Positions 7,881 through 64,000 of a DNA stretch of 64,000 nucleotides are shown in pieces. The DNA is from Candidatus Magasanikbacteria bacterium CG10_big_fil_rev_8_21_14_0_10_36_32 (GTDB taxonomy: Bacteria; Patescibacteriota; Patescibacteriia; Magasanikbacterales; GWA2-37-8): positions 87,736 through 151,735 of the forward strand of contig PFBV01000003.1 in assembly GCA_002778465.1 (NCBI GenBank), read 5' to 3'. The notes under the pieces were generated by a model, which was not told where the DNA came from, ran no database searches, and was given only the letters and a program-made list of their open reading frames with translations. Numbering within the stretch: the first letter of the stretch is position 1; each line of letters opens with the position of its first letter. The translations under genes and the position numbers were made by a program.

Positions 7881-8028
7881 CAATTATTTTTTTAAATTAT
7901 TAAAAATCCAATAATTTAAAATTAAATTTATTTATTTAATTTATCTTCAATTAACAATTTCACAAATTGTTTTTTATCCCGCCACAACGGGATTCCGCTT
8001 AACGCGGCAACTAATCATTATTTAATTT

Positions 8029-10030: not shown

Positions 10031-10060
10031 ATACCCTCGCAAAAGCGAGGGTATTTTTTA
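10031..10060. terminator. Bidirectional rho-independent terminator (for pspC on the + strand and rnpB on the - strand).
   Basis: ataccctcgc-aaaa-gcgagggtat hairpin flanked by T-runs on both strands. Confidence 0.7.
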
Positions 10061-10061
10061 T

Positions 10062-10434
10062 TCATAGCTATAAGCCGAATTCTGTTCCCCCCGAAAGGGT
10101 GATAATCATTTCTCTAGTTGCATCATTACTGACACAATCATCAGCGAGCGAACTTTTTATCCCGACGTGAAGTCGGGACTCTGCTCTTGCACGCGAGTAA
10201 GGATTTTGCCGTTTCACCTTCAATCTTCTTTTCCCCCGATCAAAGTTAAGCTGTTATTCCTGATTAAACAAGAACATGGGATTTAGCTTTCCTTAGCCTT
10301 TCGGCTTTGGACGTTTCTGTTCGCACCTCTTGGATCGCTCCAGACGGGCGTTACCCGCTACTTTTGCCACAAATGAGCGGCTGCGTGTTCGGACTTTCCT
10401 CCCTAATAAATTAGGACGATTATCCACTATGAAC
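10062..10434 (-). ncRNA. rnpB: RNase P RNA (bacterial type A-like).
   Basis: The minus-strand read contains GGAGGAAAGTCCGAACAC (P4 5' strand) ... GGTAACGCCCG ... ACAGAAACG ... ACAGAATTCGGCTTATAGC (P4 3' strand ACAGAAnnCGGCTTA). The P1 helix pairs gttcatag with ctatgaa. A perfect promoter places the TSS at about 10434. Confidence 0.85.
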
Positions 10435-10440
10435 AGGTCT

Positions 10441-13129: not shown

Positions 13130-13132
13130 AAC

Positions 13133-14254
13133 ATGAAAATTGCTTTAGTACACGACTATTTATCACAAGATGGAGGGGCAGAACGAGTTCTTAAGGCCTT
13201 CCATGAAATTTGGCCGGAAGCGCCGATTTTTGTTTTATTTCACGATAAGAAAAAAATAAATTATTTAAACCCAGAAAATATCCGCCAATCATTCTTGTCA
13301 AAATTACCATTAGTTAAATCTCTATTCCAATGGTATTTACCATTAATGCCGGCCGCCACCGAACATCACCATTTAAAAAATTTTGATTTGGTTTTATCAT
13401 CCACCAGTGCTTTTGCTAAAGGCGTAATCACCGCTCCGGAAGCTTTACATGTTTCCTATTGCCACACTCCACCGCGATATCTGTGGGCCGATGCGCATGA
13501 TTATTTAGAAAATTTAAAACGGGGTTCGTTGATTAATGCTATATTAAATAACACAATTCATAAACTGCGGTTATGGGATAAAATGAGCGCGGACCGAGTT
13601 GATTACTTTATTGCTAATTCAAAAACCGTCCAACAACGCATTCAAAAATATTATCGCCGCTTAAGCGACGTGATTTATCCTCCGGCTGACACTGATAAAT
13701 TTTATATTTCTCCTAAAATAGAAAATTATTTCGTAGCTGGCGGACGACTTGTCCCGTATAAACGTCTAGATTTAACTGTAAAAGTATTTAACCGTTTAAA
13801 AATTCCGCTCAAAATATTCGGCACCGGTCCGGAATTGCCTTATCTCAAAAAAATAGCCAAACCAAATATTGAATTTTTAGGACGAATAAGCGAAGCTGAA
13901 AAAGCTCGACTATTAAGTCGCTCTTTGGCTTTTATTCATCCGCAACTTGAAGATTTTGGCATTACACCGATTGAAGCAATGGCTTCGGGAAGACCGGTAA
14001 TTGCTTACGGTGTTGGCGGAGCCACTGAAACTGTTATTCCCAATGAAACAGGCGTTTTTTTCCGCGAACAAACCTGGGAATCATTGTTGGATACTATCAT
14101 TAATTTTGAACCGCAAAATTGGGATAGCGCCAAAATACGCGAACACGCACTACAATTTTCTTTAGATAATTTTAAAAATAATATTCAAAAATACGTTTTA
14201 GACAGATATGAAGAATTTAAAAAAGGAATGAATCAAGAACCGTTGATAAAATAA
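13133..14254 (+). CDS. Glycosyltransferase family 4.
   Basis: GT4 C-terminal signature region ...IHPQLEDFGITPIEAMASGRPVIAYGVGGATETV. Confidence 0.8.
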   Translation: MKIALVHDYLSQDGGAERVLKAFHEIWPEAPIFVLFHDKKKINYLNPENIRQSFLSKLPLVKSLFQWYLPLMPAATEHHHLKNFDLVLSSTSAFAKGVITAPEALHVSYCHTPPRYLWADAHDYLENLKRGSLINAILNNTIHKLRLWDKMSADRVDYFIANSKTVQQRIQKYYRRLSDVIYPPADTDKFYISPKIENYFVAGGRLVPYKRLDLTVKVFNRLKIPLKIFGTGPELPYLKKIAKPNIEFLGRISEAEKARLLSRSLAFIHPQLEDFGITPIEAMASGRPVIAYGVGGATETVIPNETGVFFREQTWESLLDTIINFEPQNWDSAKIREHALQFSLDNFKNNIQKYVLDRYEEFKKGMNQEPLIK

Positions 14255-14292
14255 TTTAAAAAATTTAAATTTGAATATAAAATAATACGATT

Positions 14293-15456
14293 ATGAATAT
14301 CGGCATTGATATTCGTCCAATGATGACCTCGCCGCGAACCGGGGTTGGCGAATACACATTTGAACTTCTTGACGCCGTGTTTAAAATTGACCAAAACAAT
14401 CAATATTTTTTGTATTACAACGCTTCCAAACAAACTTCAACCAATCTGCCAACTTGGAATCAACCCAATGTACATTATGTCATCACTCATTATCCAAATA
14501 AATTATTTAATAGCGCCATTAAATTATTAAGCCGACCACGACTGGACAAAATCATCTCTAAAAAATGCAACTTAACAAACGGCCTGGATTGTTTTTATTC
14601 ACCAAATTTAAATTTTGTTTCACTATCGTCAAAAACTAAATATATTTTAACCATACATGATTTATCTTTTGAATTTTTTCCAGAATTTTTTTCAAAAAAA
14701 CAAATATTATGGCATGGAGCGGTAAATCCCAAAAAACAATGCCAGCGCGCTGATACTATTTTAGCTCCGTCTGAAAATACCAAGCGTGATATTATGAATT
14801 ATTATAAAATTGAAGAAAAAAAAATAAAAGTGATTTATCCGGGTTTATCACCGATATTTAATTCAATCAACAATGAACAGCTGTCAACAAATAAGGAGTC
14901 GGTAAAACAAAAATATAACCTGCCGAATCACTATATTTTATTTTTAGGCACGATTGAACCGAGAAAAAATATTGTCGGACTAATTGAAGCTTTTGAAAAA
15001 GTTTATTCCAATTTGCCAATTCCCCACCATTTAATTATTGCCGGAGCCAACGGTTGGAGTAATAAAGAAATTTTCAATCGAGCCGCTTACTCTCCAATTA
15101 AAGATCATATAAAATTTATCGGTTATATAAATTCCGAAGATAAACCGGCTTTATATTCCAACGCCTCACTATTCATTTATCCCAGTTTTTACGAGGGCTT
15201 TGGTTTTCCGGCACTTGAAGCAATGGCAATGGGCGCGCCGGTAATTACTTCCAATCGTTCGTCGCTTTTAGAAGTAGCCGGCGATGCCGCATATTTGATA
15301 AATCCTCTGCAAACCAACTCAATAATTCAAGCAATTTTAGATATTTTAAACAAACCAGAATTAAGAGCGCGATTAATTAAAAAAGGCCGCGAACGGGCTC
15401 AATTATTTTCCTGGGAAAAAGCGGCTAAAGAATGGATTACAACAATTACTAATTAA
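14293..15456 (+). CDS. Glycosyltransferase family 4.
   Basis: [40 protein letters not shown] is the EX7E GT4 motif. Confidence 0.8.
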
Positions 15457-15457
15457 T

Positions 15458-16597
15458 ATGCACATTGGAATAGACGCTAGAATGTACGGCTCAAAACAAG
15501 GCGGGCTTGGTCGTTACATTCAACAACTTATAAAACATCTTGAAAAAACAGACACGAAACATAATTTCGTAATTTTTTTACGTCAAGAAAACTGGCATGA
15601 ATATGAACCAGCCAATCATAATTTTAAAAAAGTTCTAGCTGATATTCCGTGGTACGGCTGGCGCGAACAACTGCTTTTGCCAAAAATTATCAAAAAAGAA
15701 AAAATTAATTTGATGCATTTTCCACATTGGAATATTCCTATTTTTTATAATCAACCTTTCGTGGTAACCATTCATGATTTGCTTCTACTCCATTATCCAA
15801 CTCGTAAAGCCAGTACTCTCAGTCCGATTTCTTATTTTTTAAAAAATATCGCCTTTCGTTTTGCTTTATGTCACGCCATAAAAAAATCAAAAAACATAAT
15901 CACTCCGTGTAAATTTACAAAAAATGATATCTTAAAACATTTTGATGTCCCTGCAAAAAAAATTAATGCCGTCCATCTGGGGATTTCTAATTTTCAAATA
16001 GATTCCCTACCTACCGACAAACAGGATTCAAATTCAACCAAAATAACAAAAAAATATAGCATCACTAAACCTTATATTTTATATGTTGGCGTTGCCTATC
16101 CGCATAAAAATTTAGAAGGATTAATGCGCGCTTGGAAAATTTTTGAAGAAAAATACAATGATAATTATCAGCTTATTTTGGCTGGCAAAAAAAATTATTT
16201 TTATAAACAATTAATACAAGATAAACAATTACAAAATAAAGACATAATTTTTACCGATTTTGTTCCTGACAACGAACTGCCGGAATTGTATAAAAATGCT
16301 TCACTTTACGCATTTCCCAGTTTTTATGAAGGTTTCGGTTTACCGCCATTAGAAGCCATGTCATATGATATACCGATTGCATCTTCGGACCGTTCTTGTT
16401 TGCCTGAAATTTTACAAAATGCGGCTATTTATTTTAATCCGGAAAAACCTGAAGAAATAGCCAAAATCTTACATTATCTATTGACTGATATTGCCACTCG
16501 CGATCGCTTAATTACCAACGGCCGACAATTAATTAAAAAATACTCTTGGGACAACACCGCCAAAAGAACTTTAGAAATATATCAAGATAGTGTATAA
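15458..16597 (+). CDS. Glycosyltransferase family 4.
   Basis: [35 protein letters not shown]. Contiguous with the two upstream GT4 genes. Confidence 0.8.
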   Translation: MHIGIDARMYGSKQGGLGRYIQQLIKHLEKTDTKHNFVIFLRQENWHEYEPANHNFKKVLADIPWYGWREQLLLPKIIKKEKINLMHFPHWNIPIFYNQPFVVTIHDLLLLHYPTRKASTLSPISYFLKNIAFRFALCHAIKKSKNIITPCKFTKNDILKHFDVPAKKINAVHLGISNFQIDSLPTDKQDSNSTKITKKYSITKPYILYVGVAYPHKNLEGLMRAWKIFEEKYNDNYQLILAGKKNYFYKQLIQDKQLQNKDIIFTDFVPDNELPELYKNASLYAFPSFYEGFGLPPLEAMSYDIPIASSDRSCLPEILQNAAIYFNPEKPEEIAKILHYLLTDIATRDRLITNGRQLIKKYSWDNTAKRTLEIYQDSV

Positions 16598-16668
16598 TAT
16601 AGAGAGTAAACTTATTTTGTCTGAATTTTACTCAAACTTGATAAAAAAATAATTCTAATTTTCTGCTC

Positions 16669-19164
16669 ATGTCAGCGATAAAAAGACCACAATTGCGTTC
16701 CTGTACTTTTTGCCACAAGCCGGGACACAATAAAGCCACTTGCCCTGATTATAATTCCGCTCCAATATTGCCAGCCAAAAAACCGGCGGTCAAAGTTGTA
16801 ATTCACGGGCGAATACCATTCTCAACACAATCTCCTCACCTGCTTAATCTAAAAACTCAAAAAAATCCTTGGCTTAAAATTACTTCATCCTCTCCTGAAA
16901 AAAATACTTCTCTTTTTCAACATTATCACGAAGTAAAAGAAACAAAAAAAATTTTAAATAATCAATTTGAAAAAAAATTACCTTCTAATTTACCAAAAAT
17001 AAATTTGCGAAAAAAAATAAATAATTTACGTGACATTATAATAAAAAAATTAAAACGCAAATATAATTCTTCCGGATTAAATTTATCATCTGAACTTCCA
17101 AAAACAAAAAGAGAAAATAATTCCATAAAAAAAATAATCTCAAACTATTTAACTTCCTGGAAAACATCTGGGCGTCCGGCCTTTGTTTTGGCTATGGCAA
17201 TTTTAATATTTTTAGTTTTACCGATTCAAGCACACACCTTTTATCAAAATCTTAAGTCCACAACTCAAGCCGTGGCCGCTAATGGCACTGAAGGATTTTT
17301 AGCTCTCCAAGAATCAACCGCCGCCATAATGACAGCCGACTTGTCCGGGGCAGCGAACTCAACCAACAGCGCTTTAAATAAATTAAACAGTGCTGTTGAT
17401 ATTTTAAATACCAATCATAAATTACTTCTTAAAATTGCCTCCGTCGTGCCAATTGTCAGCCGAGAAGTACAAAGCCGGCAAAATATCATTACCGCCGGAC
17501 AAAAAATCGCACAAGGAAATTCCTTTTTAATTATGGGAATTAATTCCAGTCAAAAAAATCCTGAAGATTCATTAACACGGAGAATTTCCATTCTGACAAA
17601 ATATCTTCAAGTTGCCTTGCCTAATTATCAGGCTGCTTTAAAAGATTTAAGCAATATTGATTCAACAGTTTTACCACTGCAATACCAATCACTTTTTAAT
17701 GATTTTCGATTATTATTTGCCGGCGTTTTGAATGATTTGGATAATTTATCTGATTTGGGACAAACAATTCAAGAGGTTTTCGGAGGACAAGGTCTGCGTC
17801 GCTATCTTTTAATATTTCAAAATCCTCATGAAATTCGTCCAACCGGAGGTTTTATTGGAAGTTTCGCCATTATGGACATTAAGGATGGAAAAGTTACTAA
17901 TTTAGAAGTTCCAGCCGGAGGTTCATATGATTTACAAGGTCAACTTGATCAATTTGTTGAACCGCCAACACCATTGTTGTTAGCTAATAAACGTTGGGAA
18001 TTTCAAGACGCAAATTGGTTTCCTGATTTTCCGACCAGTGCTGAAAAAATGTTATGGTTTTATCGCCACTCTCGCCAATTAACCGCTGATGGCGTAATCG
18101 CTGTTAATGCAACCGTATTAGAACGGTTATTATCTATAATCGGTCCTGTAACAGATGAGGAACGTTCATTAACCCTGTCCGCCAATAATGCTATTGCCAC
18201 CATTCAAACAGTGGTGGAAGAAGGACCAGAAAAACAACAACGCAAACCTAAACAAATTTTAACCGATTTGGCCCCAAAACTTCTTCAACAAACAACTGAA
18301 ATCAAACCCGATCAGGCTTTGCCTTTGCTTTTAAGTATTTCAGAAGCTTTAAAACAAAAAGAAATTCAGGCTTATTTTACCGACAATGACGCTCAAAAAA
18401 CAGTGTCTTCTTTTGGTTGGGCCGGAAAAATTTTACAAACACGTGAAAATCAAGATTATCTTTTTATAGTTAACACTAATATCCGCGGGGAAAAAAGCGA
18501 TGCTGAAATTAAACAAACAATCAGTCATCAAGCGGTAATACAAGAAAATGGAGAAGTGATAAATATGGTAACAATCACTCGTGAACATTCCGGAATTCGC
18601 GGAGAAAAACTTTATGGAGCGACTAATATTGATTATCTAAGAATTTATGTGCCTGCAGGAAGTGAATTGATTTCAGTCAGCGGTTTTTCGTGGCCTGACG
18701 AAAAAACTTTTCGCGTGCCGGACAAGTGGACGACTAAAGATGAATTTATTCAAACTATTGAAAAAGAAATCAAAATTGACGACAATAGCGGCACTCGCGT
18801 CACTTCAGAATTTGGAAAAACCGCTTTCGGTAATTGGATTATTACGGAACCGGGTCAAATTTCTCAAATTCAATTTACCTACATCCTCCCTTTTAAAGTA
18901 TTCAACACTGAGGAAAATTTAAAATTATTATCATTTAAAAAAATATTGAATTCAACAAATCAATCCGCGCATTACCAATTGGCGGTTCAACGTCAATCTG
19001 GTGTGGAAACAAATTTTGATAGTCAAATAATTTTTCCAAATACATGGAAAACCACATGGAATGACGGAGAAAATTCTTTACCTGCTCTTAATGGTATGAC
19101 TATTACCGCTCATCCTTTAGAGTATGACGGAATTTGGAGTTTGTTAACACAAAAAGAAAAATAA
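16669..19164 (+). CDS. Large membrane-anchored hypothetical protein (831 aa). It has an N-terminal CCHC zinc-knuckle-like motif, a Lys/Asn-rich cytoplasmic segment, one TM helix and a ~640-aa extracytoplasmic domain.
   Basis: CTFCHKPGHNKATC has the C-x2-C-x4-H-x4-C spacing. The TM segment is RPAFVLAMAILIFLVLPI. It sits directly downstream of the glycosylation cluster. Confidence 0.6.
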   Translation: MSAIKRPQLRSCTFCHKPGHNKATCPDYNSAPILPAKKPAVKVVIHGRIPFSTQSPHLLNLKTQKNPWLKITSSSPEKNTSLFQHYHEVKETKKILNNQFEKKLPSNLPKINLRKKINNLRDIIIKKLKRKYNSSGLNLSSELPKTKRENNSIKKIISNYLTSWKTSGRPAFVLAMAILIFLVLPIQAHTFYQNLKSTTQAVAANGTEGFLALQESTAAIMTADLSGAANSTNSALNKLNSAVDILNTNHKLLLKIASVVPIVSREVQSRQNIITAGQKIAQGNSFLIMGINSSQKNPEDSLTRRISILTKYLQVALPNYQAALKDLSNIDSTVLPLQYQSLFNDFRLLFAGVLNDLDNLSDLGQTIQEVFGGQGLRRYLLIFQNPHEIRPTGGFIGSFAIMDIKDGKVTNLEVPAGGSYDLQGQLDQFVEPPTPLLLANKRWEFQDANWFPDFPTSAEKMLWFYRHSRQLTADGVIAVNATVLERLLSIIGPVTDEERSLTLSANNAIATIQTVVEEGPEKQQRKPKQILTDLAPKLLQQTTEIKPDQALPLLLSISEALKQKEIQAYFTDNDAQKTVSSFGWAGKILQTRENQDYLFIVNTNIRGEKSDAEIKQTISHQAVIQENGEVINMVTITREHSGIRGEKLYGATNIDYLRIYVPAGSELISVSGFSWPDEKTFRVPDKWTTKDEFIQTIEKEIKIDDNSGTRVTSEFGKTAFGNWIITEPGQISQIQFTYILPFKVFNTEENLKLLSFKKILNSTNQSAHYQLAVQRQSGVETNFDSQIIFPNTWKTTWNDGENSLPALNGMTITAHPLEYDGIWSLLTQKEK

Positions 19165-19215
19165 AAATTTAATTATAAAAATTTTCCGCCATCAAGCGGA
19201 ATTCCGCCAAAAGCG

Positions 19216-21180
19216 GTGAAAAAAAATATTATGTCTACAGATTTTAACACTGAAGAAAAACCTGATTTTTCTTCTCAAACAATTGGCGAAACAAAAACTC
19301 CTGCCACAAAACCAAAACATCGCGTCAAAAATATTTCCGATGATGGACACGGACGAATCAAAACAAATAAAAAACAAAAAATTGACCAGCAAATAACCGC
19401 TATTTACGAAGATGCCAACGGAAAAATTCCAGATATGAAACAAATAGAAATTAAAAAAACGCATCCATTTATCCGTAATTTAACTATTTTTGTTTTAACC
19501 GCCGCAACCATGGCCGTAATCGCTTGGGTTGGTTTTTTTGTTTTACCCACTAATAATAAATTTTCCGAAATAAAATTGGTTTTGAAAATAGAAGGTCCTT
19601 CAGAAATTACCGTCGGCGCCACCACCACCTATTCAATTTCTTTTGCCAACGAACAAGATATTAGATTAAAAAATGCCGTTTTAACAATAACTTATCCTGA
19701 AGGTTTTGTGTTTATAGAAAGTTCAAAACCGGCAAATAATGCCGGACATACCGAATGGATGCTAGATGATTTATTGCCAAATTCCGAAGGTCAAATGACA
19801 ATTACAGGAAAAACATTCGGCACTTTAAATCAAGAATATTCATGGAGCACTTTTCTGACTTATCAACCAGTAAATTTTAATTCTGAAATGCAAAAAATAG
19901 CCACTTTAAAAATTAAAATTTCAGAATCTCCTTTCAGTATTGCTTTGACCGGCCCTGACAAAACTACCGTTGGTGAAAACGCTGAATATTTATTTACTGT
20001 TAAAAATTCTTCCGACTGGTGGCCGGAATCTTTAGAATTAATTCCGTCTTTACCAATTAATTTTTATCCCGCTTCTTCGTCTCCTGCTTTGAACAAAGAT
20101 AAAAAATGGATAATAAAAACAATAAAAAACAGCTCATCCACTTTAGTTGCTCAAACGGAATATAAATTTAAACTAATAGGAAAATTTAGTGATTTTGGTG
20201 GAACAGTAACTGAAAATTTAGTTGCTTTGTCAGCTGAATTATATATACCCGGAGCAGAAAAAAAATTCGCGGTAGCAAATGGGGAAATCAAAAGTGAATT
20301 AATTAAAAATAATTATAATTTCAGTTTAGCCATCAACGGCTCAATGACCGATCTAAACAGTCAGCCGGGTGATACACTAAATATAACCATTTATCTTAAA
20401 AATGACGGACAAGAAACAATAAAAAAAGGTGTACTAAAATTAATTTTAGATTCACCCTCATTAAACAGACGCACCGCTCTTGATTGGACCAATGTCAACG
20501 ATCCGTTAGATGGTCTTATTACCGGCGAACAAATAAATAACAACATCCGACGCGGCACAATTAAATGGACAGAAAAAGATTTGTCGACTTTGTCCAGCAT
20601 TAAACCGGGACAAGAAATAGGCATTGATTTGCAATTACCTATCCGCGACAGCAAAGTTTTTGATTTGGCCGAGTTGGTTGAATACCAAGTGAAAACTTTG
20701 GCTGAGATTAACTTTTTAGACAGTGCTGGAAAAACAAAAAGTCTCTCTGCCAATCCAATCAATATCACTTTAAATTCGGATTTCAAATTTGAATCACGCG
20801 ATAGTCAAACTGTTAAAAACGGAATTGAAAAACGCGACATAACTTGGGTGTTAACTAACACATTCCATCCATTAAAAAACATTGAGCTTTCGGCGGAATT
20901 ATTCGGCGATATCAATTTCTACAGTGCTTCTCCAACTCCGGCCGGCATTTTAAATTACGATCAGGATACTAAAAAAATAATCTGGACAATTGCCGAGATG
21001 CCTCTCAATCTTGATATTTTAGCTCTACCTTTCACAATCACCATTAATACAAAAAATCCTTCACAAAGCGCCTTAATTTCTAAAATTCATATTCGGGCTG
21101 AAGATAGTATTACTGGAAAAACTTTTGATTTTATGAGTGATGAAACTCCGCTGGAATATAATCCGGTTGTTCAACAATAA
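19216..21180 (+). CDS. Surface protein with DUF11/CARDB-like repeats (654 aa), anchored by one TM helix. The track start is GTG at 19216; an ATG at 19231 (MSTDF) is the alternative.
   Basis: TM segment LTIFVLTAATMAVIAWVGFFVL. Repeated blocks resemble DUF11 (ITVGATTTYSISFANEQDIRLKNAVLTITYPEGF; TVGENAEYLFTVKNSSD; GDTLNITIYLKNDGQ). Confidence 0.6.
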   Translation: MKKNIMSTDFNTEEKPDFSSQTIGETKTPATKPKHRVKNISDDGHGRIKTNKKQKIDQQITAIYEDANGKIPDMKQIEIKKTHPFIRNLTIFVLTAATMAVIAWVGFFVLPTNNKFSEIKLVLKIEGPSEITVGATTTYSISFANEQDIRLKNAVLTITYPEGFVFIESSKPANNAGHTEWMLDDLLPNSEGQMTITGKTFGTLNQEYSWSTFLTYQPVNFNSEMQKIATLKIKISESPFSIALTGPDKTTVGENAEYLFTVKNSSDWWPESLELIPSLPINFYPASSSPALNKDKKWIIKTIKNSSSTLVAQTEYKFKLIGKFSDFGGTVTENLVALSAELYIPGAEKKFAVANGEIKSELIKNNYNFSLAINGSMTDLNSQPGDTLNITIYLKNDGQETIKKGVLKLILDSPSLNRRTALDWTNVNDPLDGLITGEQINNNIRRGTIKWTEKDLSTLSSIKPGQEIGIDLQLPIRDSKVFDLAELVEYQVKTLAEINFLDSAGKTKSLSANPINITLNSDFKFESRDSQTVKNGIEKRDITWVLTNTFHPLKNIELSAELFGDINFYSASPTPAGILNYDQDTKKIIWTIAEMPLNLDILALPFTITINTKNPSQSALISKIHIRAEDSITGKTFDFMSDETPLEYNPVVQQ

Positions 21181-24048: not shown

Positions 24049-24711
24049 TTACGGCTGCTTGATACAGTCATAAACAGCGCAGAAGGCTTTAATGTCCAAC
24101 TTAGTCAAAAAAGGCGAGGTCTGACCGGCAACATCTTTCGGCGAACCTTCCGGATACATCACTGGCGGTTCATCGTTTGAATTCAAAAAATTAATATGCT
24201 GAAGCGCAATCCAGTGACCGAATTCGTGAACGACTACGTAATACAGAAAATGGAGATATTCAGCTTGTGTTCTGCTTTCATCATCAACCGAAGGCGCGAT
24301 GCTGAAATCAAAGAGTAGAATATCTTCCTGCACGCCAAAGCCGAGAATGGAAGCATCCGTACCTTCATACTTTCCTGTAATGTAGGTTGAATAGAGGTAG
24401 TCGTACCACTCGTCCCGCTCATCCACGTTGTAGACGACATTGTTGCCGTCATCCAGATTTTCCATCGGGGAAAAACCGTCCTTGGCGTAGCGTCCTCGGT
24501 AGATGATGATGTCGTAACCGAGATATTCACGACCAATCTGATTCCATTCCTCCGCCGCGTTCAGAATAGCTTGCTCTTGCGCTTCGGAAAAAGTATCGTC
24601 AATCATGAAATCTTTTGGAAGATCTTCAGCCAACATCTGACAAGAGGACAGGCTGATAAGGAGGCAGGCGGAAACGAACAGAATTACCAGACGCGAGAAA
24701 AACCGATCCAT
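24049..24711 (-). CDS. Lipoprotein zinc metalloprotease (metzincin-like HExxHxxxxxH).
   Basis: Signal peptide with lipobox LISLSSC and active site VVVHEFGHWIALQH. It lies in a GC-rich island. Confidence 0.65.
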   Translation of the reverse strand: MDRFFSRLVILFVSACLLISLSSCQMLAEDLPKDFMIDDTFSEAQEQAILNAAEEWNQIGREYLGYDIIIYRGRYAKDGFSPMENLDDGNNVVYNVDERDEWYDYLYSTYITGKYEGTDASILGFGVQEDILLFDFSIAPSVDDESRTQAEYLHFLYYVVVHEFGHWIALQHINFLNSNDEPPVMYPEGSPKDVAGQTSPFLTKLDIKAFCAVYDCIKQP

Positions 24712-25277
24712 ATCTGACCTCCTTTCAATGCTTCATCGTACATTGGACGAGCGAAATCACCGTAATGCCTAAACGTAGTAATCGGCGGTGGCATAAAAAC
24801 TCTCCAATCCAATGTCATAGACACTGTCTTGGTCAGCTTTACTTCAGCACCTACTCCGAAGACTATGTCAATCTTCCGCTCCAAACGGGCAACGGAAACA
24901 GGCACAGTGAGGTTGCCGAACATCCCGAAATCGCCGATGTGCAGACGCACCCGATCGGTATGGACAATATCCAAACCGAGAGCGACTCCGACTCCGTAGG
25001 GAAATACCGCGCTGACTTCCAGAACGAGGGGGGTGTACTTGGGCAGGCGGAAACGGACGGCGACATGACCGGTGAAAGAAGCGGTGCTGGAAGCGCCGTA
25101 CAGACTATCATACGCTTCCATCCACGGCGCGCCTCCGAGGCCGAGATTGAACTGGCACTCGAAGGTCTCCTGACCGGACACTTCGCTTTCAGAACCATCA
25201 TCTGCTGTTGCGACGGTGGCTAGCGCCATTCCGAAGCAAACGACCGCAACCATCAAAAACACCTTATACATCTTCAT
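24684..25277 (-). CDS. Outer-membrane-protein-like small beta-barrel (OmpW/OmpA-like porin family).
   Basis: Signal peptide MKMYKVFLMVAVVCFGMALATVATA, alternating hydrophobic beta-strand pattern, C-terminal aromatic residue (…WIGFSRVW) typical of OMP beta-barrels. It overlaps the downstream metzincin gene by 28 nt. A perfect TTGACA-17-TATAAT promoter on the minus strand is at about 25408-25436. Confidence 0.55.
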   Translation of the reverse strand: MKMYKVFLMVAVVCFGMALATVATADDGSESEVSGQETFECQFNLGLGGAPWMEAYDSLYGASSTASFTGHVAVRFRLPKYTPLVLEVSAVFPYGVGVALGLDIVHTDRVRLHIGDFGMFGNLTVPVSVARLERKIDIVFGVGAEVKLTKTVSMTLDWRVFMPPPITTFRHYGDFARPMYDEALKGGQIWIGFSRVW

Positions 25278-27745: not shown

Positions 27746-28708
27746 ATGTCAGAGCCCACTTATCGCCAGGCGTTATTTCAGGCTTGGCGTTTGGTTTGGC
27801 ACAATAAAATCTTGTGGATTTTTGGTCTTTTATCCATGTTATTCGCCGGTTCTTTTGGCGCGGATAATTTTATTGGAAAATTACTGACCGCCCTATCCGA
27901 TGGAAAAGCCACTTTTTTGGCAAATTTTAAACTACGTTCTTTCCTAAATTTCACTCCAATTAATGCTATTGGTTTGGTTTGGTTGGCTGGTATTATGATA
28001 GCGATTGGTTTATTTATTATTTTTGTATCTATTTGTTCGCGCGCTTCCCTATTAATCGCCACTGCTGAATTCTATCGCCATAAAATAATCCCAAAATTTT
28101 CTTTGATTTGGCACAGTAGTATAAAATATTTTTGGCAAATTTTATCAATTGAAATGATAAAAAAAATTTTATTGATAACAATCCTCATAATTTTTACCGC
28201 CATCTGGCAACAACTTCCTAATTTAAATTCTTTATGGCAAACTCCGCTGGCTTTTCTAATTCTGGGTGTAATAATTTGTCTGTCTTTAATAATTATTTCA
28301 GTGGCAATTTATGCTTCCGGATATGCGGTTATTGATAAAAAATCTTTACTCACCAGCATAACCAGCGGTTGGAAATTATTTAGACGCCATATTTTAGTAT
28401 CGTTAGAAATCAGTTTAATTTTATTATTGATTGATTTATTAGTTTTGTTTTTACTCTTAGGAGTTTTCTCTGTTGCTTTCGTCCCCTCTTTGCTTATTTG
28501 GATAGTAGCGGCCACTGTGGGCAATTATGTCATGGCCACTATTGGATTTTTGCTTGGTTTATTTATTTTAGTAATTTTAATTGCTTTTGTCGGCGCGATC
28601 TATAATACTTTCACCACTAGCGTGTGGATGTATATGTTTATGAAAATGCACCATGAAAATATCTTCAGCCGAATATTTCATCATGTGGGCAATTTTTTCA
28701 AGAAATAA
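27746..28708 (+). CDS. Polytopic membrane protein (hypothetical).
   Basis: 320 aa with about 6 hydrophobic helices. It ends 3 nt before pilB. Confidence 0.5.
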   Translation: MSEPTYRQALFQAWRLVWHNKILWIFGLLSMLFAGSFGADNFIGKLLTALSDGKATFLANFKLRSFLNFTPINAIGLVWLAGIMIAIGLFIIFVSICSRASLLIATAEFYRHKIIPKFSLIWHSSIKYFWQILSIEMIKKILLITILIIFTAIWQQLPNLNSLWQTPLAFLILGVIICLSLIIISVAIYASGYAVIDKKSLLTSITSGWKLFRRHILVSLEISLILLLIDLLVLFLLLGVFSVAFVPSLLIWIVAATVGNYVMATIGFLLGLFILVILIAFVGAIYNTFTTSVWMYMFMKMHHENIFSRIFHHVGNFFKK

Positions 28709-28711
28709 ATT

Positions 28712-30427
28712 ATGACGGATTTTCCTTCAATAAAAGATTTGATATCCAAATCAAACGACAACAATAAAAAACCTGCCGGGCAAAAAACAGCACCGGAAAA
28801 ATTTGCGTCTAAAATGCATGAAATGGATTTAAAAGCCAAAGAAGAACAAGTTGAAGCCAAGGCTGCCAGTGCCAATATCCCCTATATAAACTTAACTAAT
28901 TTTCCTGTATCATCAGAAGCCTTACGTATAATTCCAGAAACTGAAGCGCGAGGAAAAAACATAGTTTGTTTTCATGCCACACCAGAAGAAATTAGAATCG
29001 GCAGTTTAGAAATTTCTCCTGAAATCAAAGAATATGCCTATCAACTTGGCGAACGGCATCATGCACACATTGAGATTTATTTAATCACAAAAAATAGTCT
29101 TGACACTATTTTAAAACTCTATGCCACCTTACCTGTTATTCTCCCAATTACTAAAGATATCAATATTACCGACGAGGAACTAAATAAATTTCAATCAAAT
29201 ATTGATAACTTATTTTCAATCCAAGAACATTTTAAAAATGTTTCCATTACCGATATTTTAACTTTAATGATAGCAGCCGCTTTAAAAATCAACGCCTCTG
29301 ATATCCATGTGGAAGCAGAAGAAAAAGGCATCGCGGTCCGTTACCGTATTGACGGTATTCTGCATGAAGTGGCGGAATTACCTAAAGATCAGTGGAAAAG
29401 ATTTGTTTCACGCATTAAATTATTAGCCGCCTTGAAAATAAATGTCACCGACAAACCTCAAGACGGACGTGTTACTTTGCGATTATCTTCCAACAGCTTG
29501 GATATTCGTGTTTCCACTATGCCCACCACCTACGGAGAAAGTATTGTGATGAGAATTTTACATAGCGGTTCTAAAGGTGTTACCTACGATGAATTGGGAT
29601 TACGCGGCGATGCTTATCTCAGATTAAAGAAAGAAATTGAACGACCGAATGGAATGATTATTACTACTGGTCCTACAGGTTCGGGTAAAACCACCACTCT
29701 ATATGCTATTTTAAGAACAATAAATAAACCTGGTGTAAAAATCATCACGTTAGAAGATCCGATTGAAATTAAAATGGAAGGAATTAATCAGAGTCAAGTG
29801 GACCCATCGCATGATTACACTTTTGCCAAAGGTTTGCGCAGTATTCTCCGTCAAGATCCTGACATTTGTATGGTTGGAGAAATTCGTGATTTAGAAACAG
29901 CTGAAATAGCAATTCAAGCGGCTTTAACCGGACATTTAATGCTTTCAACTATTCATACTAATAGTGCTTCAGGCGCCATCCCACGATTCCTTTCTATGGG
30001 TGTGAAACCATTTTTACTCGCTCCGGCAGTAAATGCTATTATTGGACAACGTTTGGTTAGACGTATTTGTGAAAAATGCATTGTGGAAATGGAATTAACC
30101 ACGGAACAAAAAGAACGGGTAAATAATATTTTTTCTACCATGCCTGAAACTGAAAGAAATAAAATTGATCTAAATAATTTAAAATTTTATAAAGGTGCCG
30201 GTTGTCCAGAATGTAGCGGATTGGGTTATAAAGGCCGCATTGGTATTTATGAAATTTTTGCCATGAACAAAGAAATAGAAAACATTATTTTAAGTGGCCA
30301 AGTTTCTGAATATGTCATACAAGAAATCGCCGTTAAAAATGGAATGGTTACTATGATTCAGGATGGTTTATTAAAAGCTTTGGATAAAATTACCACCATT
30401 GATGAAGTTTTTCGAGTAGCTGATTAA
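28712..30427 (+). CDS. pilB: Type II/IV secretion-system ATPase (PilB/GspE family).
   Basis: Walker A TGPTGSGKTTTLYA, Asp box, Walker B/His box, tetracysteine CEKC...CPEC, and an N-terminal GSPII_E_N-like region. Confidence 0.85.
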   Translation: MTDFPSIKDLISKSNDNNKKPAGQKTAPEKFASKMHEMDLKAKEEQVEAKAASANIPYINLTNFPVSSEALRIIPETEARGKNIVCFHATPEEIRIGSLEISPEIKEYAYQLGERHHAHIEIYLITKNSLDTILKLYATLPVILPITKDINITDEELNKFQSNIDNLFSIQEHFKNVSITDILTLMIAAALKINASDIHVEAEEKGIAVRYRIDGILHEVAELPKDQWKRFVSRIKLLAALKINVTDKPQDGRVTLRLSSNSLDIRVSTMPTTYGESIVMRILHSGSKGVTYDELGLRGDAYLRLKKEIERPNGMIITTGPTGSGKTTTLYAILRTINKPGVKIITLEDPIEIKMEGINQSQVDPSHDYTFAKGLRSILRQDPDICMVGEIRDLETAEIAIQAALTGHLMLSTIHTNSASGAIPRFLSMGVKPFLLAPAVNAIIGQRLVRRICEKCIVEMELTTEQKERVNNIFSTMPETERNKIDLNNLKFYKGAGCPECSGLGYKGRIGIYEIFAMNKEIENIILSGQVSEYVIQEIAVKNGMVTMIQDGLLKALDKITTIDEVFRVAD

Positions 30428-30455
30428 TTTTAATAATTTTTTTAAATTTTTTAAT

Positions 30456-31622
30456 ATGATTACTAGACGGCTTTCAACTCGCCCTATTCCTCCACCGCCA
30501 GTTCGACTTTATCGAACTGTGGCGTTAACATTTTTATTTATCACCATAGTTCTACTCGGTTTTGTTATTTTTGCCATGTTAAAAAAGACTGAAATTATTA
30601 TTATGGCACGCGAGGATACCAAGTCGGTCAAAACAATCATTACTGCCGAACAACAAAAACAAGGCGTTAAATCCATCAACTCTATTGTCACTTCAACGCA
30701 ATTTTATTGGCTTGAAAAATATACTCCGACTGCTGTCAAAAATGTTCCCAGCACATCAAAAGGACAGGTAATTATTTATAATAAAACTAATGAAAATCAA
30801 ATTTTAGTAAAAACCACTCGTTTATTGACACCAAATAATGTTCTCTTTCGTTTATCGGATAGAGTAATAATTCCGGCTAATGGACAATTAACCGCTGACG
30901 TATATGCTGATAAATCCGGCTCAACCAGCGATATCGGTCCGAGTCAATTCACTATTCCTGGATTATCCACGGAAAAACAAAAACTAATCTACGCTGAAAG
31001 CAAAACAGCTATGGTTGGCGGTTCAGGCACAACTAAGGTGGTTAGTGAATCTGATTTAAAAGCCGCTGAAATGGATTTTATGGAAAAAACAAAACAAGCA
31101 TTTTTAGATAAATTTGTTTCTTCTAACAACTCCAAAACAACATCGGCTGACTTCGACCAAAAAATCGTCAATGTTACATCCCAACACATTTCTCCTTCAG
31201 CAAAAATCGGACAAGAAACAAACGAATTCACTATTTCCGGAACCAGTACACTAACGGTTGTGTTTTATAACCGACAAGAATTAATAGAAACATTAAATAA
31301 AGAAATTGGTTCAAATATTGATAATGGCTCTGAAAAAATTCTATCTTTAAACGGAGAACCTCAAATTTCCATAGAATCGGTTGACTTGTCTAATGCCAAC
31401 GCCCGCTTATCTGTTACCGCTCAAGCATTGGTCACATTGGATGCTAATGCGCCACTATTGTCTAAAGAAAACTTTTTAAATAAAAATAAAAGCGAACTGG
31501 AAAGATACATCGTTGGTTTACCACATGTCATTAGTATGAATATCAAATTCACACCATCATGGATTACTAAAACTCCTGGTGTGCCAGATAAAATTAAAGT
31601 GATTGTAAAAAATGTAAAATAA
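30456..31622 (+). CDS. Membrane-anchored hypothetical protein (388 aa).
   Basis: N-terminal Pro-rich segment plus a TM helix (VALTFLFITIVLLGFVIFAML), then an extracytoplasmic Ser/Thr-rich domain. It sits directly downstream of pilB. Confidence 0.45.
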   Translation: MITRRLSTRPIPPPPVRLYRTVALTFLFITIVLLGFVIFAMLKKTEIIIMAREDTKSVKTIITAEQQKQGVKSINSIVTSTQFYWLEKYTPTAVKNVPSTSKGQVIIYNKTNENQILVKTTRLLTPNNVLFRLSDRVIIPANGQLTADVYADKSGSTSDIGPSQFTIPGLSTEKQKLIYAESKTAMVGGSGTTKVVSESDLKAAEMDFMEKTKQAFLDKFVSSNNSKTTSADFDQKIVNVTSQHISPSAKIGQETNEFTISGTSTLTVVFYNRQELIETLNKEIGSNIDNGSEKILSLNGEPQISIESVDLSNANARLSVTAQALVTLDANAPLLSKENFLNKNKSELERYIVGLPHVISMNIKFTPSWITKTPGVPDKIKVIVKNVK

Positions 31623-38866: not shown

Positions 38867-38940
38867 GTCAGGGTAGCTCAGCTGGTTAGAGCACTGGATT
38901 CATAACCCGGAGGTCGGGAGTTCAAGTCTCCCCCCTGACA
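38867..38940 (+). tRNA. tRNA-Met (anticodon CAU; it could alternatively be a lysidine-modified tRNA-Ile2).
   Basis: Acceptor gtcaggg/ccctgac, D-arm gctc-agctggtta-gagc, anticodon loop ttCATaa, T-arm gggag-ttcaagt-ctccc. It ends 2 nt before the tsaD ATG. Confidence 0.8.
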
Positions 38941-38942
38941 CT

Positions 38943-56728: not shown

Positions 56729-56757
56729 TTTGACTGAATGTTGAAATTATTATATAA
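56729..56757 (+). promoter_or_regulatory. Promoter of the Clp ATPase gene (TTGACT-17-TATAAT).
   Basis: ttgact at 56729-56734 and tataat at 56752-56757. Confidence 0.55.
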
Positions 56758-56812
56758 TACCGCCATAAATAAGGCAAACTTTTGATGAAATAAGGCAAAC
56801 TTTTGATGAAAT

Positions 56813-61272: not shown

Positions 61273-61941
61273 ATGCTCTCTTACAAAAAAAAATTATATT
61301 TTGTATTGGCTTTAATAATATTATTTTTAATGGTTTTGATTTTTAAACAAATTTCCACCGCATATAAAATTTCCGTTTCACCGGCCAATAAAAATTTAAT
61401 TGACAATAAAATGACCGAGATTCCCTCAGACTTAAACGATCCTCTGTTTGGTAATCAAGGAGCGGCAATTACCATTGTAGAATTTGTTGATTTAAATTCA
61501 AAAGACAGTCGAGAAATTCATCGCCAAATAAAAAATTTCGTAGCTAATTATCCAACAAAAATTCGTCTTATATGGAAAGATTTACCGGAACCAAACATGT
61601 TTAATTCCAAAGCATCAATTTCTCACCAGGCCGCTTGGTGTGTTTACAAACAAGACAAAAATAAATTTTGGACATTTACTGATGCGATGCTTGATAAAAA
61701 ATCAATCAATGACACCAATGTCTTAAAAAATTTAATTGATGAATTAAAAATTAACAATACTTCTTGGCAACAATGCCTCGATTCCACTGAAGCTAAAACC
61801 AAAGTAGAAACTTCTTTATCATTAGGAAATTCTTTGGGAATTTTCTCCGCGCCGGCGATGTTTATTAATAATAAAAAAATAAACTACTTAGATGAAATAA
61901 ATATGGTTGATTTCTTAAATGAAATTATTAAAGAATACTAA
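61273..61941 (+). CDS. DsbA-like thioredoxin-fold protein lacking the CxxC active site (degenerate), membrane-anchored.
   Basis: ITIVEFVDLNSKDSREI aligns with FVIVEFIDFKCPICKGQ of the 4594..5349 DsbA-like protein, with CPIC replaced by NSKD. Same N-terminal TM architecture. Confidence 0.6.
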   Translation: MLSYKKKLYFVLALIILFLMVLIFKQISTAYKISVSPANKNLIDNKMTEIPSDLNDPLFGNQGAAITIVEFVDLNSKDSREIHRQIKNFVANYPTKIRLIWKDLPEPNMFNSKASISHQAAWCVYKQDKNKFWTFTDAMLDKKSINDTNVLKNLIDELKINNTSWQQCLDSTEAKTKVETSLSLGNSLGIFSAPAMFINNKKINYLDEINMVDFLNEIIKEY

Positions 61942-61949
61942 ATTTCAAT

Positions 61950-63233
61950 ATGATTCGGTTTAAAAAAATTTTAATTATCTCTCTAGTTGGTTATCTTCTG
62001 TTTCCGGCAATAGCAATGGCGGCAAGTTGTTGTGTGTGTGTTCAACAATCAGCCGATTTGGGTGCGGGAGGTTTTAATTATGATTGGGAATCGGGGCAAG
62101 TTTTTACAGATATCACTGATGATATTGACAGTAAGTGCAGTGAAACAAAACGAGATGCTGTTATGTTTGGGGGGCTTACTCCTTTTATCTGCGCCATTAA
62201 AGACAATACGCGCTGTTCCCCGGCGGCCGTCACCACAAAACTGGAAGAAGATTTTAAATTTTCTGATGTTGTTTTGGGTATTAAAATTCCAAATTTATCC
62301 TTTAGTGCTCCGCCAACAGAAATAGATTCTGAAGGAAATATCTATATTCCTTGGATTGGTGAATATATTAAAGCTTTATATAATTTCGCTTTAATTGCCA
62401 TCAGTGTAATAGCAGTGGTAGTATTAATTATTCAAGGAGTACGAATAATAATTTCCGCCGGCGGTCCGGAAAAATCCGCCGCTTATAAAGGTATTGCCGG
62501 AGCAGTAATCGGACTTTTTATTGCGTGGGGTTCATATGTAATTCTTTATTCAATTGACCCGAATTTAACTCAATTTAAATCTTTAAAAATAAAGTTTATT
62601 GAAACAGAATATTTGGAAGAGCCGGCTGATGATATTGAACAAACTACAACCGTTCTTTCATCTCAAATTATTAAAAAAGCCGATAAAACTGGCCGTAATG
62701 ATTGTCTAAAAGAAATATTACTTGAGACAGCCAGTATTTCTTTAAAGAAAAATTTTCCAGATTTAATAGGTAAATCTCCAAATCATCCAAAACCTCAAGG
62801 AGCACGTAGTGTCACAATTAATAAACTAATGTACAATGATTTAATGGCTGTTTTGTCTGAAATTCTACAATCAACCGACTATAAAATAAAAGCTATCGGC
62901 GGCATTCGAGGAACAAGTGGGGTTTGTAATTCTAATAATTTGCATCTTTGCGGATTAGCAGTAGATATTAATCCTGGTGATAATCCTGATTGTCCAGCTT
63001 ACATCAAAAAAAATGACAGGCAAGTTGGACAATTTTGGGATGTAGCTGGTGATCACAAGATTACTCAAACAGAATGGGACTTGTGTAATAAAGGAGGACA
63101 AGTAACTAATATCCCGCAAAAAGTTATTGACATCTTTGAAAAACACGGATTTTACTGGGGCGGTTATGGTTGGGGTAATCCTAATCGTTCAGATGCCATG
63201 CATTTCGAATATCATAAATATTGCTACGAATAA
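61950..63233 (+). CDS. Secreted Cys-rich protein (427 aa). It has a signal peptide, a Cys-rich N-domain, a VirB2/TrbC-like two-helix hairpin (aa 137-207) and a C-terminal LAS/M15-type zinc peptidoglycan peptidase domain. It is a paralog of the 2895..4589 protein.
   Basis: Signal peptide MIRFKKILIISLVGYLLFPAIAMA. The hairpin YIKALYNFALIAISVIAVVVLIIQGVRIIISAGGPEKSAAYKGIAGAVIGLFIAWGSYVILYSIDP matches the 2895 gene. The C-terminus has HLCGLAVDIN (HxxGxAxD) ... GFYWGGYGW ... DAMHFEYH, typical of VanY/M15 (LAS) peptidases. Confidence 0.7.
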   Translation: MIRFKKILIISLVGYLLFPAIAMAASCCVCVQQSADLGAGGFNYDWESGQVFTDITDDIDSKCSETKRDAVMFGGLTPFICAIKDNTRCSPAAVTTKLEEDFKFSDVVLGIKIPNLSFSAPPTEIDSEGNIYIPWIGEYIKALYNFALIAISVIAVVVLIIQGVRIIISAGGPEKSAAYKGIAGAVIGLFIAWGSYVILYSIDPNLTQFKSLKIKFIETEYLEEPADDIEQTTTVLSSQIIKKADKTGRNDCLKEILLETASISLKKNFPDLIGKSPNHPKPQGARSVTINKLMYNDLMAVLSEILQSTDYKIKAIGGIRGTSGVCNSNNLHLCGLAVDINPGDNPDCPAYIKKNDRQVGQFWDVAGDHKITQTEWDLCNKGGQVTNIPQKVIDIFEKHGFYWGGYGWGNPNRSDAMHFEYHKYCYE

Positions 63234-63249
63234 CCAATTGAGCTATAAT

Positions 63250-63288
63250 CACTTTACCCCGCTTTAAGCGGGGTAAAGTGATATTATT
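63250..63288 (+). terminator. Rho-independent terminator.
   Basis: cactttaccccgc-ttta-agcggggtaaagtg followed by a T-rich run. Confidence 0.6.
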
Positions 63289-64000
63289 ATGAAAAATAAT
63301 CAAATATTTTCTTGTTCCAACTGCGGCGCGCAATTCCAGAAATGGGTTGGGCGATGTTTAGAATGTGGAAAATGGGGAACAATTGATGATAAACCTCAAA
63401 TCCAAATAACTAAAAAACAAAATAATACAGAAAATTATGCTCTAACTTCATTATCTACTTTGTCGTCTATAAAAAGTGAAAATGCGGCTAGAATTAAAAC
63501 CAATGTTAATGAATTGGACCGCGTCTTGGGCGGTGGATTCGTGCCAGGCAGTTTAATACTGCTCGGTGGTGAACCGGGAATCGGCAAATCAACTCTGGCT
63601 CTGCAGTTAAGTTCAATTTTTGCCCACACACTTTATCTTTCAGGTGAAGAATCAATTGAACAAATTAAAATTCGATCTGAACGTTTAAAAATTAATTCCC
63701 CCACTCTGCAAATAGGTAATGAAACTAATGTAGAAAAAATTGTTGCCACTATTAGAAAAATAAAACCGCCGATGGCAATTGTTGATTCGATTCAAACAAT
63801 TTCCTCTAACGAAGCCGAGGGTGAAGCTGGAAATATAACTCAGGTTCGCGCTTGCACAGTAAAACTGATGGAAGCAGCTAAAACAACTGGCACCACCATC
63901 ATTTTGGTTGGACAAGTAACAAAAGAGGGATCAGTGGCAGGACCTAAAAGTTTAGAACATTTAGTTGATATGGTACTCTATTTAGAAGGTGATCGTTTTC
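63289..64000 (+). CDS. radA: DNA repair protein RadA/Sms (N-terminal part; continues beyond the window end).
   Basis: MKNNQIFSCSNCGAQFQKWVGRCLECGKWGT zinc finger, Walker A GGEPGIGKSTLALQ and a KNQGH-like region. It is not in the ORF track because it runs off the window. Confidence 0.85.
   Translation, partial: MKNNQIFSCSNCGAQFQKWVGRCLECGKWGTIDDKPQIQITKKQNNTENYALTSLSTLSSIKSENAARIKTNVNELDRVLGGGFVPGSLILLGGEPGIGKSTLALQLSSIFAHTLYLSGEESIEQIKIRSERLKINSPTLQIGNETNVEKIVATIRKIKPPMAIVDSIQTISSNEAEGEAGNITQVRACTVKLMEAAKTTGTTIILVGQVTKEGSVAGPKSLEHLVDMVLYLEGDRF

Follow-up and report, generated by a model that had tools for sequence, protein, structure and literature searches.

The proteins described here are built from components of known kinds, namely an M15 peptidase, a DsbA fold and a pilin-like membrane hairpin; what appears to be new is their combination, the conserved gene module to which they belong, the swapping of the domains behind the hairpin and a pseudo-DsbA that is maintained by selection. 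The genes lie in a stretch of 64,000 nt (the window) from Candidatus Magasanikbacteria bacterium CG10_big_fil_rev_8_21_14_0_10_36_32 (GCA_002778465.1, PFBV01000003.1:87,736-151,735, forward strand), an uncultured member of the candidate phyla radiation (CPR; GTDB lineage Bacteria; Patescibacteriota; Patescibacteriia; Magasanikbacterales; GWA2-37-8). Members of the CPR have ultrasmall cells, few of them have been cultured, and a life on other cells is presumed for them; little is understood of how they build or breach envelopes. Two open reading frames (ORFs) of the + strand, separated by 8 nt, are in question: 61273-61941 encodes a DsbA-like protein of 222 aa without active-site cysteines, and 61950-63233 a hairpin protein of 427 aa, which is most likely, as predicted from its sequence, a zinc peptidoglycan peptidase of the M15/LAS type. 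Both ORFs were found exactly where a preliminary description of this DNA had placed them.

Among enzymes of the M15/LAS type, Ply500 and the D,D-carboxypeptidases of the YodJ/VanY type resemble the 427-aa protein in having H-x6-D and D-x2-H motifs in HxxGxAxD and GFxWGG...D..HFE contexts. The window protein differs from them in that its M15 domain is fused to a two-helix hairpin that is itself preceded by a Cys-rich domain and a signal peptide, has about 55 residues inserted between the two motifs and contains six cysteines. The DsbA-like partner resembles BdbD and the alpha-DsbA proteins of Wolbachia in its cis-Pro loop, in a thioredoxin fold into which helices are inserted and in being anchored in the membrane or located outside the cytoplasm, and it has in common with Wolbachia alpha-DsbA1 a second Cys pair in the helical domain, but it has no CxxC motif and occupies a fixed operon position beside one client family. 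Its closest functional parallel is TraF of the F plasmid (with TrbB), a protein with a thioredoxin fold that lacks CXXC and is needed for pilus extension (PMC11315126). TraF is never found without a redox-active relative, and there are systems whose TraF is still redox-active (PMC11315126). The resemblance is functional only: in the window, too, a Cys-less protein of this kind, here DsbA-like, goes with a pilin-like protein, an active paralogue is present in the genome and other lineages keep active orthologues. The window pair differs in that it belongs to a monoderm-type host and lies outside any type IV secretion system (T4SS) cluster.

The hairpin itself has its counterpart within the same phylum-level group, in the VirB2-like pilins of Patescibacteria (PF18895), which have a homologous signal peptide and two-helix hairpin and also occur in tandem arrays; in contrast to these, the hairpin protein is 3-7 times longer, has large ectodomains at both ends, bears an enzyme and is not encoded near virB4. 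Membrane-tethered wall hydrolases with interchangeable SLT, CHAP, NlpC/P60 and M23 domains operate in Gram-positive conjugation (PrgK, CwlT, TraG of pIP501), but these are anchored by a single helix, while the hairpin protein is anchored by a pilin-like hairpin and encoded outside a T4SS cluster. Polymorphic toxins, too, combine a conserved N-terminal part, an abrupt break of identity at a fixed junction and unrelated C-terminal enzymatic domains; unlike them, the hairpin proteins have no downstream immunity gene and no recognisable secretion or release domain, and their domains are almost all wall hydrolases.

The 427-aa protein matches Peptidase_M15_4 (PF13539) over aa 331-421 (E 1.6e-11, 45.0 bits, cutoff 25). 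In an alignment of the query with the M15-bearing sequences from 49 homologue matches (12 sequences, down to 28% identity), H332, D339, D415 and H418 are invariant (12/12), and so is the GFxWGG...D-A-M-H-F-E-Y context. The stretch H332-L-C-G-L-A-V-D339 has the H-x(3-6)-D form (HxxGxAxD), and D415-A-M-H418 the [DE]-x-x-H form, aligned to D-Y-P-H of Ply500. A profile of the M15 domain matches B. subtilis YodJ (E 0.0087) with H..GLA.D aligned, and aligns both motifs to the L-Ala-D-Glu peptidase of Listeria phage Ply500 (HNYGVAVD and DYPHFE). The aligned Ply500 residues are H80, D87, D130 and H133, which we take to be its three zinc ligands and catalytic base; the chain numbering in the alignment agrees with these positions given a 12-residue tag. 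H332, D339 and H418 are the probable zinc ligands of the window protein and D415 its probable base. The M15/LAS assignment, which the preliminary description had drawn from HLCGLAVD...DAMHFEYH motifs, is borne out by the above-cutoff Pfam match and by the conservation of all metal-binding and catalytic residues, each of the three zinc ligands being invariant in the 12 homologues; HLCGLAVD and DAMH hold, while the last His (H422) is replaced by W, Y, R or L in relatives and is no ligand. Comparison of the full-length 427-aa model to PDB and BFVD by Foldseek was dominated by helical hairpins and recovered no LAS enzyme (one significant viral match, unnamed), and a phmmer search of PDB sequences with the whole protein gave nothing meaningful. 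A PHROGs search matched neither this protein nor its DsbA-like neighbour.

The 222-aa protein matches Thioredoxin_4 (4.4e-13, 50.2 bits, cutoff 23.2) and DSBA (1.8e-9) in Pfam and has a single hydrophobic segment, which is N-terminal (aa 10-28). Its AlphaFold2 (AF2) model (pLDDT 86) has the predicted thioredoxin fold with an inserted helical domain, and the top Foldseek match is BdbD of B. subtilis (3eu3, E 6.9e-11, TM 0.78), followed by ScsC and Wolbachia DsbA proteins (201 PDB matches at E<=1e-3). In place of the CxxC motif stands S76-K-D-S79. The only cysteines of the protein are C123 and C168, a second pair that is retained in every DsbA-like relative compared. The fold and the anchor are thus kept without the CxxC, and the loss of both catalytic cysteines, proposed from the comparison of VEFVDLNSKDS with VEFIDFKCPIC in another DsbA-like protein of the window (copy 1), stands. 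Since the CxxC is absent, the protein is expected to carry out no disulfide exchange. An alternative frame or a sequencing error that would restore the motif was rejected: a CRIC encoded near nt 61476 lies out of frame and runs straight into a TGA, orthologues conserve the in-frame peptide, and no in-frame alternative gives a CxxC.

The pair forms the end of a widespread four-gene envelope module between clpC and radA, which the preliminary description had missed and which has apparently not been described before. The gene order shared by the orthologue contigs is a phosphoglucomutase-family gene (opposite strand), a clpC-like gene, genes for a protein of ~225 aa and a beta-propeller protein of ~410 aa, the DsbA-like gene, the hairpin protein gene, radA and then recG (opposite strand). 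A survey, in which one genome per species was scanned, returned 80 loci, nearly all from Magasanikbacteria, and ~65 of them keep the module gene order with 1-4 tandem hairpin genes. Homologues of the propeller gene directly precede the DsbA-like gene in ~65 loci, and the clpC-like flank is present at 51 related loci. The intergenic gaps of the module in the window are 3-16 nt, radA starts 56 nt after the peptidase gene (Table 1), and transcription of the unit might start at the promoter-like site ahead of the clpC-like gene. Because clpC and radA are adjacent in the clpC operon of B. subtilis, the four envelope genes seem to have been inserted into an ancient clpC-radA neighbourhood. The first gene of the module evolves fast in sequence and matches no Pfam family, and in five loci (L001, L004, L006, L009 and L011) a similarly sized ORF stands in its position; its PHROG matches are weak, one of them being an Rz-like spanin. 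At ~30 other loci, and at L015, L023, L024 and L026, the module is borne by public records titled 'uncultured Gammaproteobacteria bacterium', titles which are probably mislabelled.

Table 1 Features of the clpC-radA module and of copy 1 (window coordinates).
Feature	Position	Strand	Remarks
Sigma-70-like promoter, best match	56730..56758	+	TTGACT-17-TATAAT, 11/12 positions; consensus match only; upstream of clpC-like gene
ClpC/ClpB-like AAA+ chaperone, 842 aa	56813..59341	+	Clp_N, two AAA domains, ClpB_D2-small; conserved upstream flank of module
Module gene 1, 223 aa	59358..60029	+	Coiled-coil-like region, C-terminal membrane helix aa 156-177
Module gene 2, 409 aa	60040..61269	+	N-terminal membrane helix, beta-propeller-like ectodomain; weak TolB/PD40 signals
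Module gene 3, Cys-less membrane-anchored DsbA-fold protein, 222 aa	61273..61941	+	Pfam, AF2/Foldseek, orthologue alignments, dN/dS
Degenerate active site, aa 69-80	61477..61512	+	V-E-F-V-D-L-N-S-K-D-S-R; S76 and S79 in place of the two cysteines
Cis-proline-loop proline P194, codon	61852..61854	+	Invariant in two alignments; kept in 79/79 DsbA-like sequences tabulated
Module gene 4, predicted hairpin-anchored M15 peptidase, 427 aa	61950..63233	+	Pfam, AF2, alignment
Signal-peptide-like N-terminus, aa 1-24 (...AIAMA)	61950..62021	+	CCVC motif (C27, C28, C30) directly after
Variable Cys-rich N-terminal ectodomain, 6 Cys	62022..62348	+	Includes conserved juxtamembrane segment IPNLSFSAPP...GNIYIPWIGEYI
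Two-helix membrane hairpin, aa 134-202	62349..62555	+	Short SAGGPEK loop; T4SS_pilin-like core
C-terminal ectodomain with M15/LAS core, aa ~245-427	62682..63230	+	Pfam, alignments, profile search
Probable ligand and base codons	H332 62943-62945; D339 62964-62966; D415 63192-63194; H418 63201-63203	+	
Hairpin, 16-bp stem	63248..63282	+	15 nt past peptidase stop codon; terminator-like, but tail not T-rich
radA, 5' part	63289..64000	+	Conserved downstream flank; continues beyond window end
Copy 1 DsbA-like protein, 251 aa	4594..5349	-	Membrane-anchored, intact CPIC motif
Copy 1 hairpin protein, 564 aa	2895..4589	-	32 Cys, no N-terminal CCxC motif

The DsbA-like genes of the operon keep the CxxC in 44 loci and are without it in 21 (~16 non-redundant lineages). 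The fact that 44 orthologues at the same position keep the motif, against 21 that do not, makes the loss a derived state. The residues that replace the cysteines vary by lineage (S..S, D..S, E..D, N..A, K..Q). Ten S..S sequences form one clade in a neighbour-joining tree, and this clade is nested in a subclade with other Cys-less members and four CxxC-bearing members, which suggests several losses. The Cys-less genes are under purifying selection: the dN/dS values of Cys-less pairs with unsaturated dS are 0.079 and 0.098, similar to those of CxxC pairs (0.03-0.14), so the gene is not decaying. The earlier interpretation of the Cys-less protein as a repurposed non-catalytic partner is backed by the 44 CxxC orthologues at the same operon position and by the dN/dS of 0.08-0.10. 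The adjoining hairpin proteins stay rich in Cys, with a density of 3.6 per 100 aa beside Cys-less DsbAs and 2.2 beside active ones. In a Falkowbacteria genome (L089), a DsbA-like gene at ~4568 has one remaining Cys (C-H-H-T) beside a 246-aa hairpin protein, and may represent an intermediate state of active-site loss.

The hairpin is the most conserved part of the 427-aa protein, with 80-90% identity between sister lineages, and AF2 predicts its helices (134-168 and 173-202) with pLDDT >90. A signal peptide and two membrane helices with a short loop are what T4SS pilins have, but those are small, hairpin-only proteins, and the 427 aa of the window protein include ectodomains of ~105 and ~225 aa. 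Its own match to T4SS_pilin (PF18895) covers aa 135-194 and reaches 23.1 bits, below the cutoff of 26.6, while relatives pass it (32.2 bits in L018) and 55 of 84 operon hairpin homologues match at E<=1e-3. The term pilin-like, as used for the hairpin in the preliminary description, draws on this sub-threshold match and on the homology to true PF18895 members. There are three hydrophobic segments in the protein, and its 12 cysteines are divided six and six between the two ectodomains, with none in the hairpin; this distribution about a Cys-free hairpin fits a location of both the N- and the C-terminal domain outside the cell. We infer a topology with a cleaved signal peptide, the Cys-rich N-terminal domain outside, the hairpin loop in the cytoplasm and the M15 domain outside. 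A lipoprotein signal at the Cys after the signal peptide was rejected, the residues ahead of the first Cys being a misfit to the lipobox in several orthologues.

We propose that the 427-aa protein is probably an extracytoplasmic, membrane-tethered peptidoglycan peptidase with a dedicated redox-inert escort derived from DsbA. The ancestral DsbA-like partner would have been a working thiol oxidase for Cys-rich ectodomains; in the clade of the window it lost both cysteines and kept the fold, the anchor, the cis-Pro loop and the structural Cys pair, and most likely it now serves as a redox-inert escort or holdase during membrane insertion and folding of the hairpin protein. The VirB2-like two-helix hairpin would tether the M15 peptidase to the cell membrane, and the disulfides could be supplied by the CPIC-bearing DsbA of copy 1, perhaps also by the client's own N-terminal CCxC. 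Several observations weigh against this proposal. Neither DsbB nor VKOR was found among the Pfam-scanned ORFs of the window and 10 kb beyond, and an 'active' DsbA pathway is thus incomplete on this sequence. The AF2 model of the M15 region includes low-confidence stretches (aa 357-364 and 406-409), the topology follows from hydropathy and Cys distribution only, and the swapping of domains together with up to 4 tandem copies, described below, is typical of effectors and unlike housekeeping enzymes. As to the substrate, we lean slightly towards the wall of the producing cell, which would be opened locally or turned over, and away from that of a host, because the module occupies a fixed housekeeping slot and no immunity gene accompanies it; the swapped cassettes and the tandem copies would speak for the host wall.

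If the proposal of a tethered peptidase with an escort is correct, proteins listed as 'pilin' in databases can be membrane-tethered wall hydrolases. The module would offer a concrete set of envelope enzymes that can be tested and that an entire lineage has conserved, and the wider hairpin family amounts to tens of thousands of clusters. The DsbA-like partners form a natural series that runs from an active oxidase to a selected Cys-free pseudoenzyme, in parallel to the unexplained TraF, and this series could reveal the role of the DsbA fold beyond redox chemistry.

The hairpin is a fixed scaffold behind which the wall hydrolase is swapped like a cassette between lineages. In three pairs of lineages with close DsbA-like genes, the juxtamembrane segment and the hairpin show 80-90% identity between the two hairpin proteins, and identity falls to ~20% right after aa ~211-220, where M15 is exchanged for a papain-like or an SLT-like domain. 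A Pfam census of 84 operon hairpin proteins counted T4SS_pilin in 55, SLT in 14, GDSL_2 in 13, M15_4 and VanY in 10 each, Amidase_2 in 8, M15 in 3, M23 in 2, and C39_2, NlpC/P60 and CHAP in 1 each; non-wall domains were Metallophos (3), Exo_endo_phos (3) and FGE-sulfatase (2), and no adhesin or wall-binding domain was found in this sample. A reading of the 13 GDSL domains as lipases, hence of an effector-like repertoire, was downgraded, since one protein (L017) bears both SLT and GDSL; the co-occurrence fits peptidoglycan O-acetyl esterases, paired in L017 with a lytic transglycosylase. At E<=1e-3, the profile made from a 50-sequence alignment matches 27,037 representatives clustered at 50% identity, and at E<=1e-30 it matches 1,680. 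Up to four tandem hairpin-hydrolase genes, abutting and with no small genes between them, occur at L024:3063-10836 and L079:4369-9605.

It is possible, although we consider it less probable, that the hydrolases are directed at the host, as weapons or feeding enzymes displayed on the surface or on pili, with which an epibiotic Magasanikbacterium breaches the host wall, the variable C-terminal cassettes reflecting an arms race or the host range. As in polymorphic toxins, a conserved N-terminal part is followed by unrelated C-terminal domains exchanged at a fixed junction, and the hypervariable N-terminal ectodomain, the 1-4 tandem copies per locus, the presence of the non-wall domains and the very large size of the family are all in line with this alternative. 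Pilin-like genes of a T4SS cluster are, moreover, indispensable for the CPR bacterium Southlakia to grow as an epibiont (PMC10633639). On the other side, the polymorphic toxin pattern is broken by the absence of an immunity gene downstream (the next gene, 56 nt on, is radA, and hairpin genes in tandem abut), the protein is tethered to the membrane and shows no obvious release site, and in the clade of the window it holds a fixed single-copy slot in a housekeeping neighbourhood. The lack of adhesin and wall-binding domains in the census and the fusion of GDSL to SLT, which fits esterases of peptidoglycan and not lipases, also argue against a host-directed role.

The N-terminal cysteine motif of the hairpin protein goes with the state of the DsbA-like gene. 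Of the first hairpin genes that follow a Cys-less DsbA, 14 of 16 encode CCxC or CxC at aa 25-35, immediately behind the signal peptide, as compared with 7 of 49 after a CxxC DsbA (Fisher p 1.7e-7, not corrected for shared ancestry), and copy 1 agrees with this pattern, an active CPIC being combined with a partner hairpin that has no N-terminal motif. Four loci (L021, L023, L077 and L084) hold the motif together with an active DsbA, and the motif therefore seems to precede the loss of CxxC. A more far-reaching reading, which we regard as doubtful, would join these observations with a host-directed role: from a dedicated clpC-radA slot, the hairpin would display exchangeable wall-degrading cassettes at host cells, a private DsbA-family partner would mature each scaffold, and one clade would have shifted the redox centre out of the enzyme and into an N-terminal CCxC/CxC gained by the client, after which the DsbA would repeatedly have lost its CxxC and stayed as the Cys-free docking subunit of a split oxidoreductase.

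The preliminary description had likened the hairpin protein to VirB1, and in such a role the hairpin would co-assemble with VirB2-like pilins while the peptidase opens the wall for a T4SS or pilus apparatus. We find this unlikely. The analogy has no genomic support at the locus: VirB4, VirD4, VirB6 or any other T4SS gene is absent by Pfam scan from 61 kb upstream and 10 kb downstream, which rules out membership of the pair in a T4SS cluster there. In Patescibacteria, VirB2-like pilins including PF18895 occur in arrays of 2-11 genes, and radA and recG are near T4SS loci, often within them, in Magasanikiibacteriota (PMC12102498); neither a fusion of a pilin with a hydrolase nor a DsbA partner is described in that work or was found in literature searches. 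An assembly role would agree with the position of radA and recG, with the membrane-anchored multi-domain wall hydrolases used by Gram-positive T4SS and with the homology of the hairpin to bona fide small PF18895 pilins, since the hairpin profile also matches arrays of such pilins (127-215 aa, 37-40 bits in Pfam). It would also agree with the occurrence of hairpin-SLT proteins near small pilin arrays at two loci. There (L051:1603-10340 and L070:607-8861), a hairpin-SLT protein of 474-478 aa precedes a nucleotidyl transferase and a solute-binding protein, after which six to eight small PF18895 pilins (127-324 aa) form an array. However, no virB4, virB6 or virD4 was found in the stretches examined at these two loci either, the window protein stays under the PF18895 cutoff, and the hairpin-only profile finds no solved pilin in PDB.

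A regulatory or inhibitory role of the Cys-less DsbA-like protein, which would keep the tethered hydrolase inactive until needed and so protect the cell, is in our view distinctly improbable. The DsbA-like gene is always directly upstream (3-10 nt spacing), and a tethered wall hydrolase demands self-protection, for which no other immunity gene is present. The partner is conserved, however, although catalytic domains of unrelated folds replace one another, so an inhibitor could act only via the conserved hairpin region and not on the active sites, and the orthologues with intact CxxC argue for an origin in folding. It is highly improbable that the Cys-less gene is a functionless, decaying relic retained only through its location in the operon, as the loss of both catalytic cysteines and the differing substitutions might suggest, because its reading frame is intact in all ~16 lineages, the dN/dS of 0.08-0.10, the same as in active orthologues, contradicts a pseudogene, and conservation extends to the cis-Pro loop, C123/C168 and a C-terminal motif specific to the clade.

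Copy 1 lies near the other end of the window (Table 1), and its DsbA-like protein is the candidate active oxidase of the genome, judged by its CPIC motif. The pair had been described as a second copy of the same module, but it is not a recent duplicate: the two DsbA-like proteins are 23% identical, and the hairpin proteins have the hairpin alone in common (44% over 106 aa). The hairpin protein of copy 1 has repeated Cys-rich motifs in its C-terminal part, and uvrA follows directly after its gene. DsbA-like genes beside hairpin genes were also seen outside the clpC-radA operon at L040, L066, L071, L074, L081-L083, L086 and L089.

Elsewhere in the window, a PilB-type ATPase (T2SSE, E 1.6e-122) is encoded at 27746-31622 between ORFs of 320 aa and 388 aa without Pfam match, probably as part of a type IV pilus locus. 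The region 11714-21180 looks like a surface-polysaccharide or envelope cluster, in which a sugar transferase and three GT4 glycosyltransferases precede a DUF4012 protein of 831 aa and a DUF11 protein of 654 aa. A patch at 24049-25277 (- strand) with a G+C of 0.44, compared with ~0.35, may be acquired DNA; it encodes a lipoprotein-like protein of 220 aa with a zincin motif (HEFGHxxxLxH) and a secreted protein of 197 aa, neither of which has a Pfam match. The G+C bump at 10-12 kb is accounted for by the RNase P RNA (10055-10435, - strand, 114 bits), and tRNA genes are present for Leu(CAG) at 7798-7881 and for Met(CAT) at 38867-38941.

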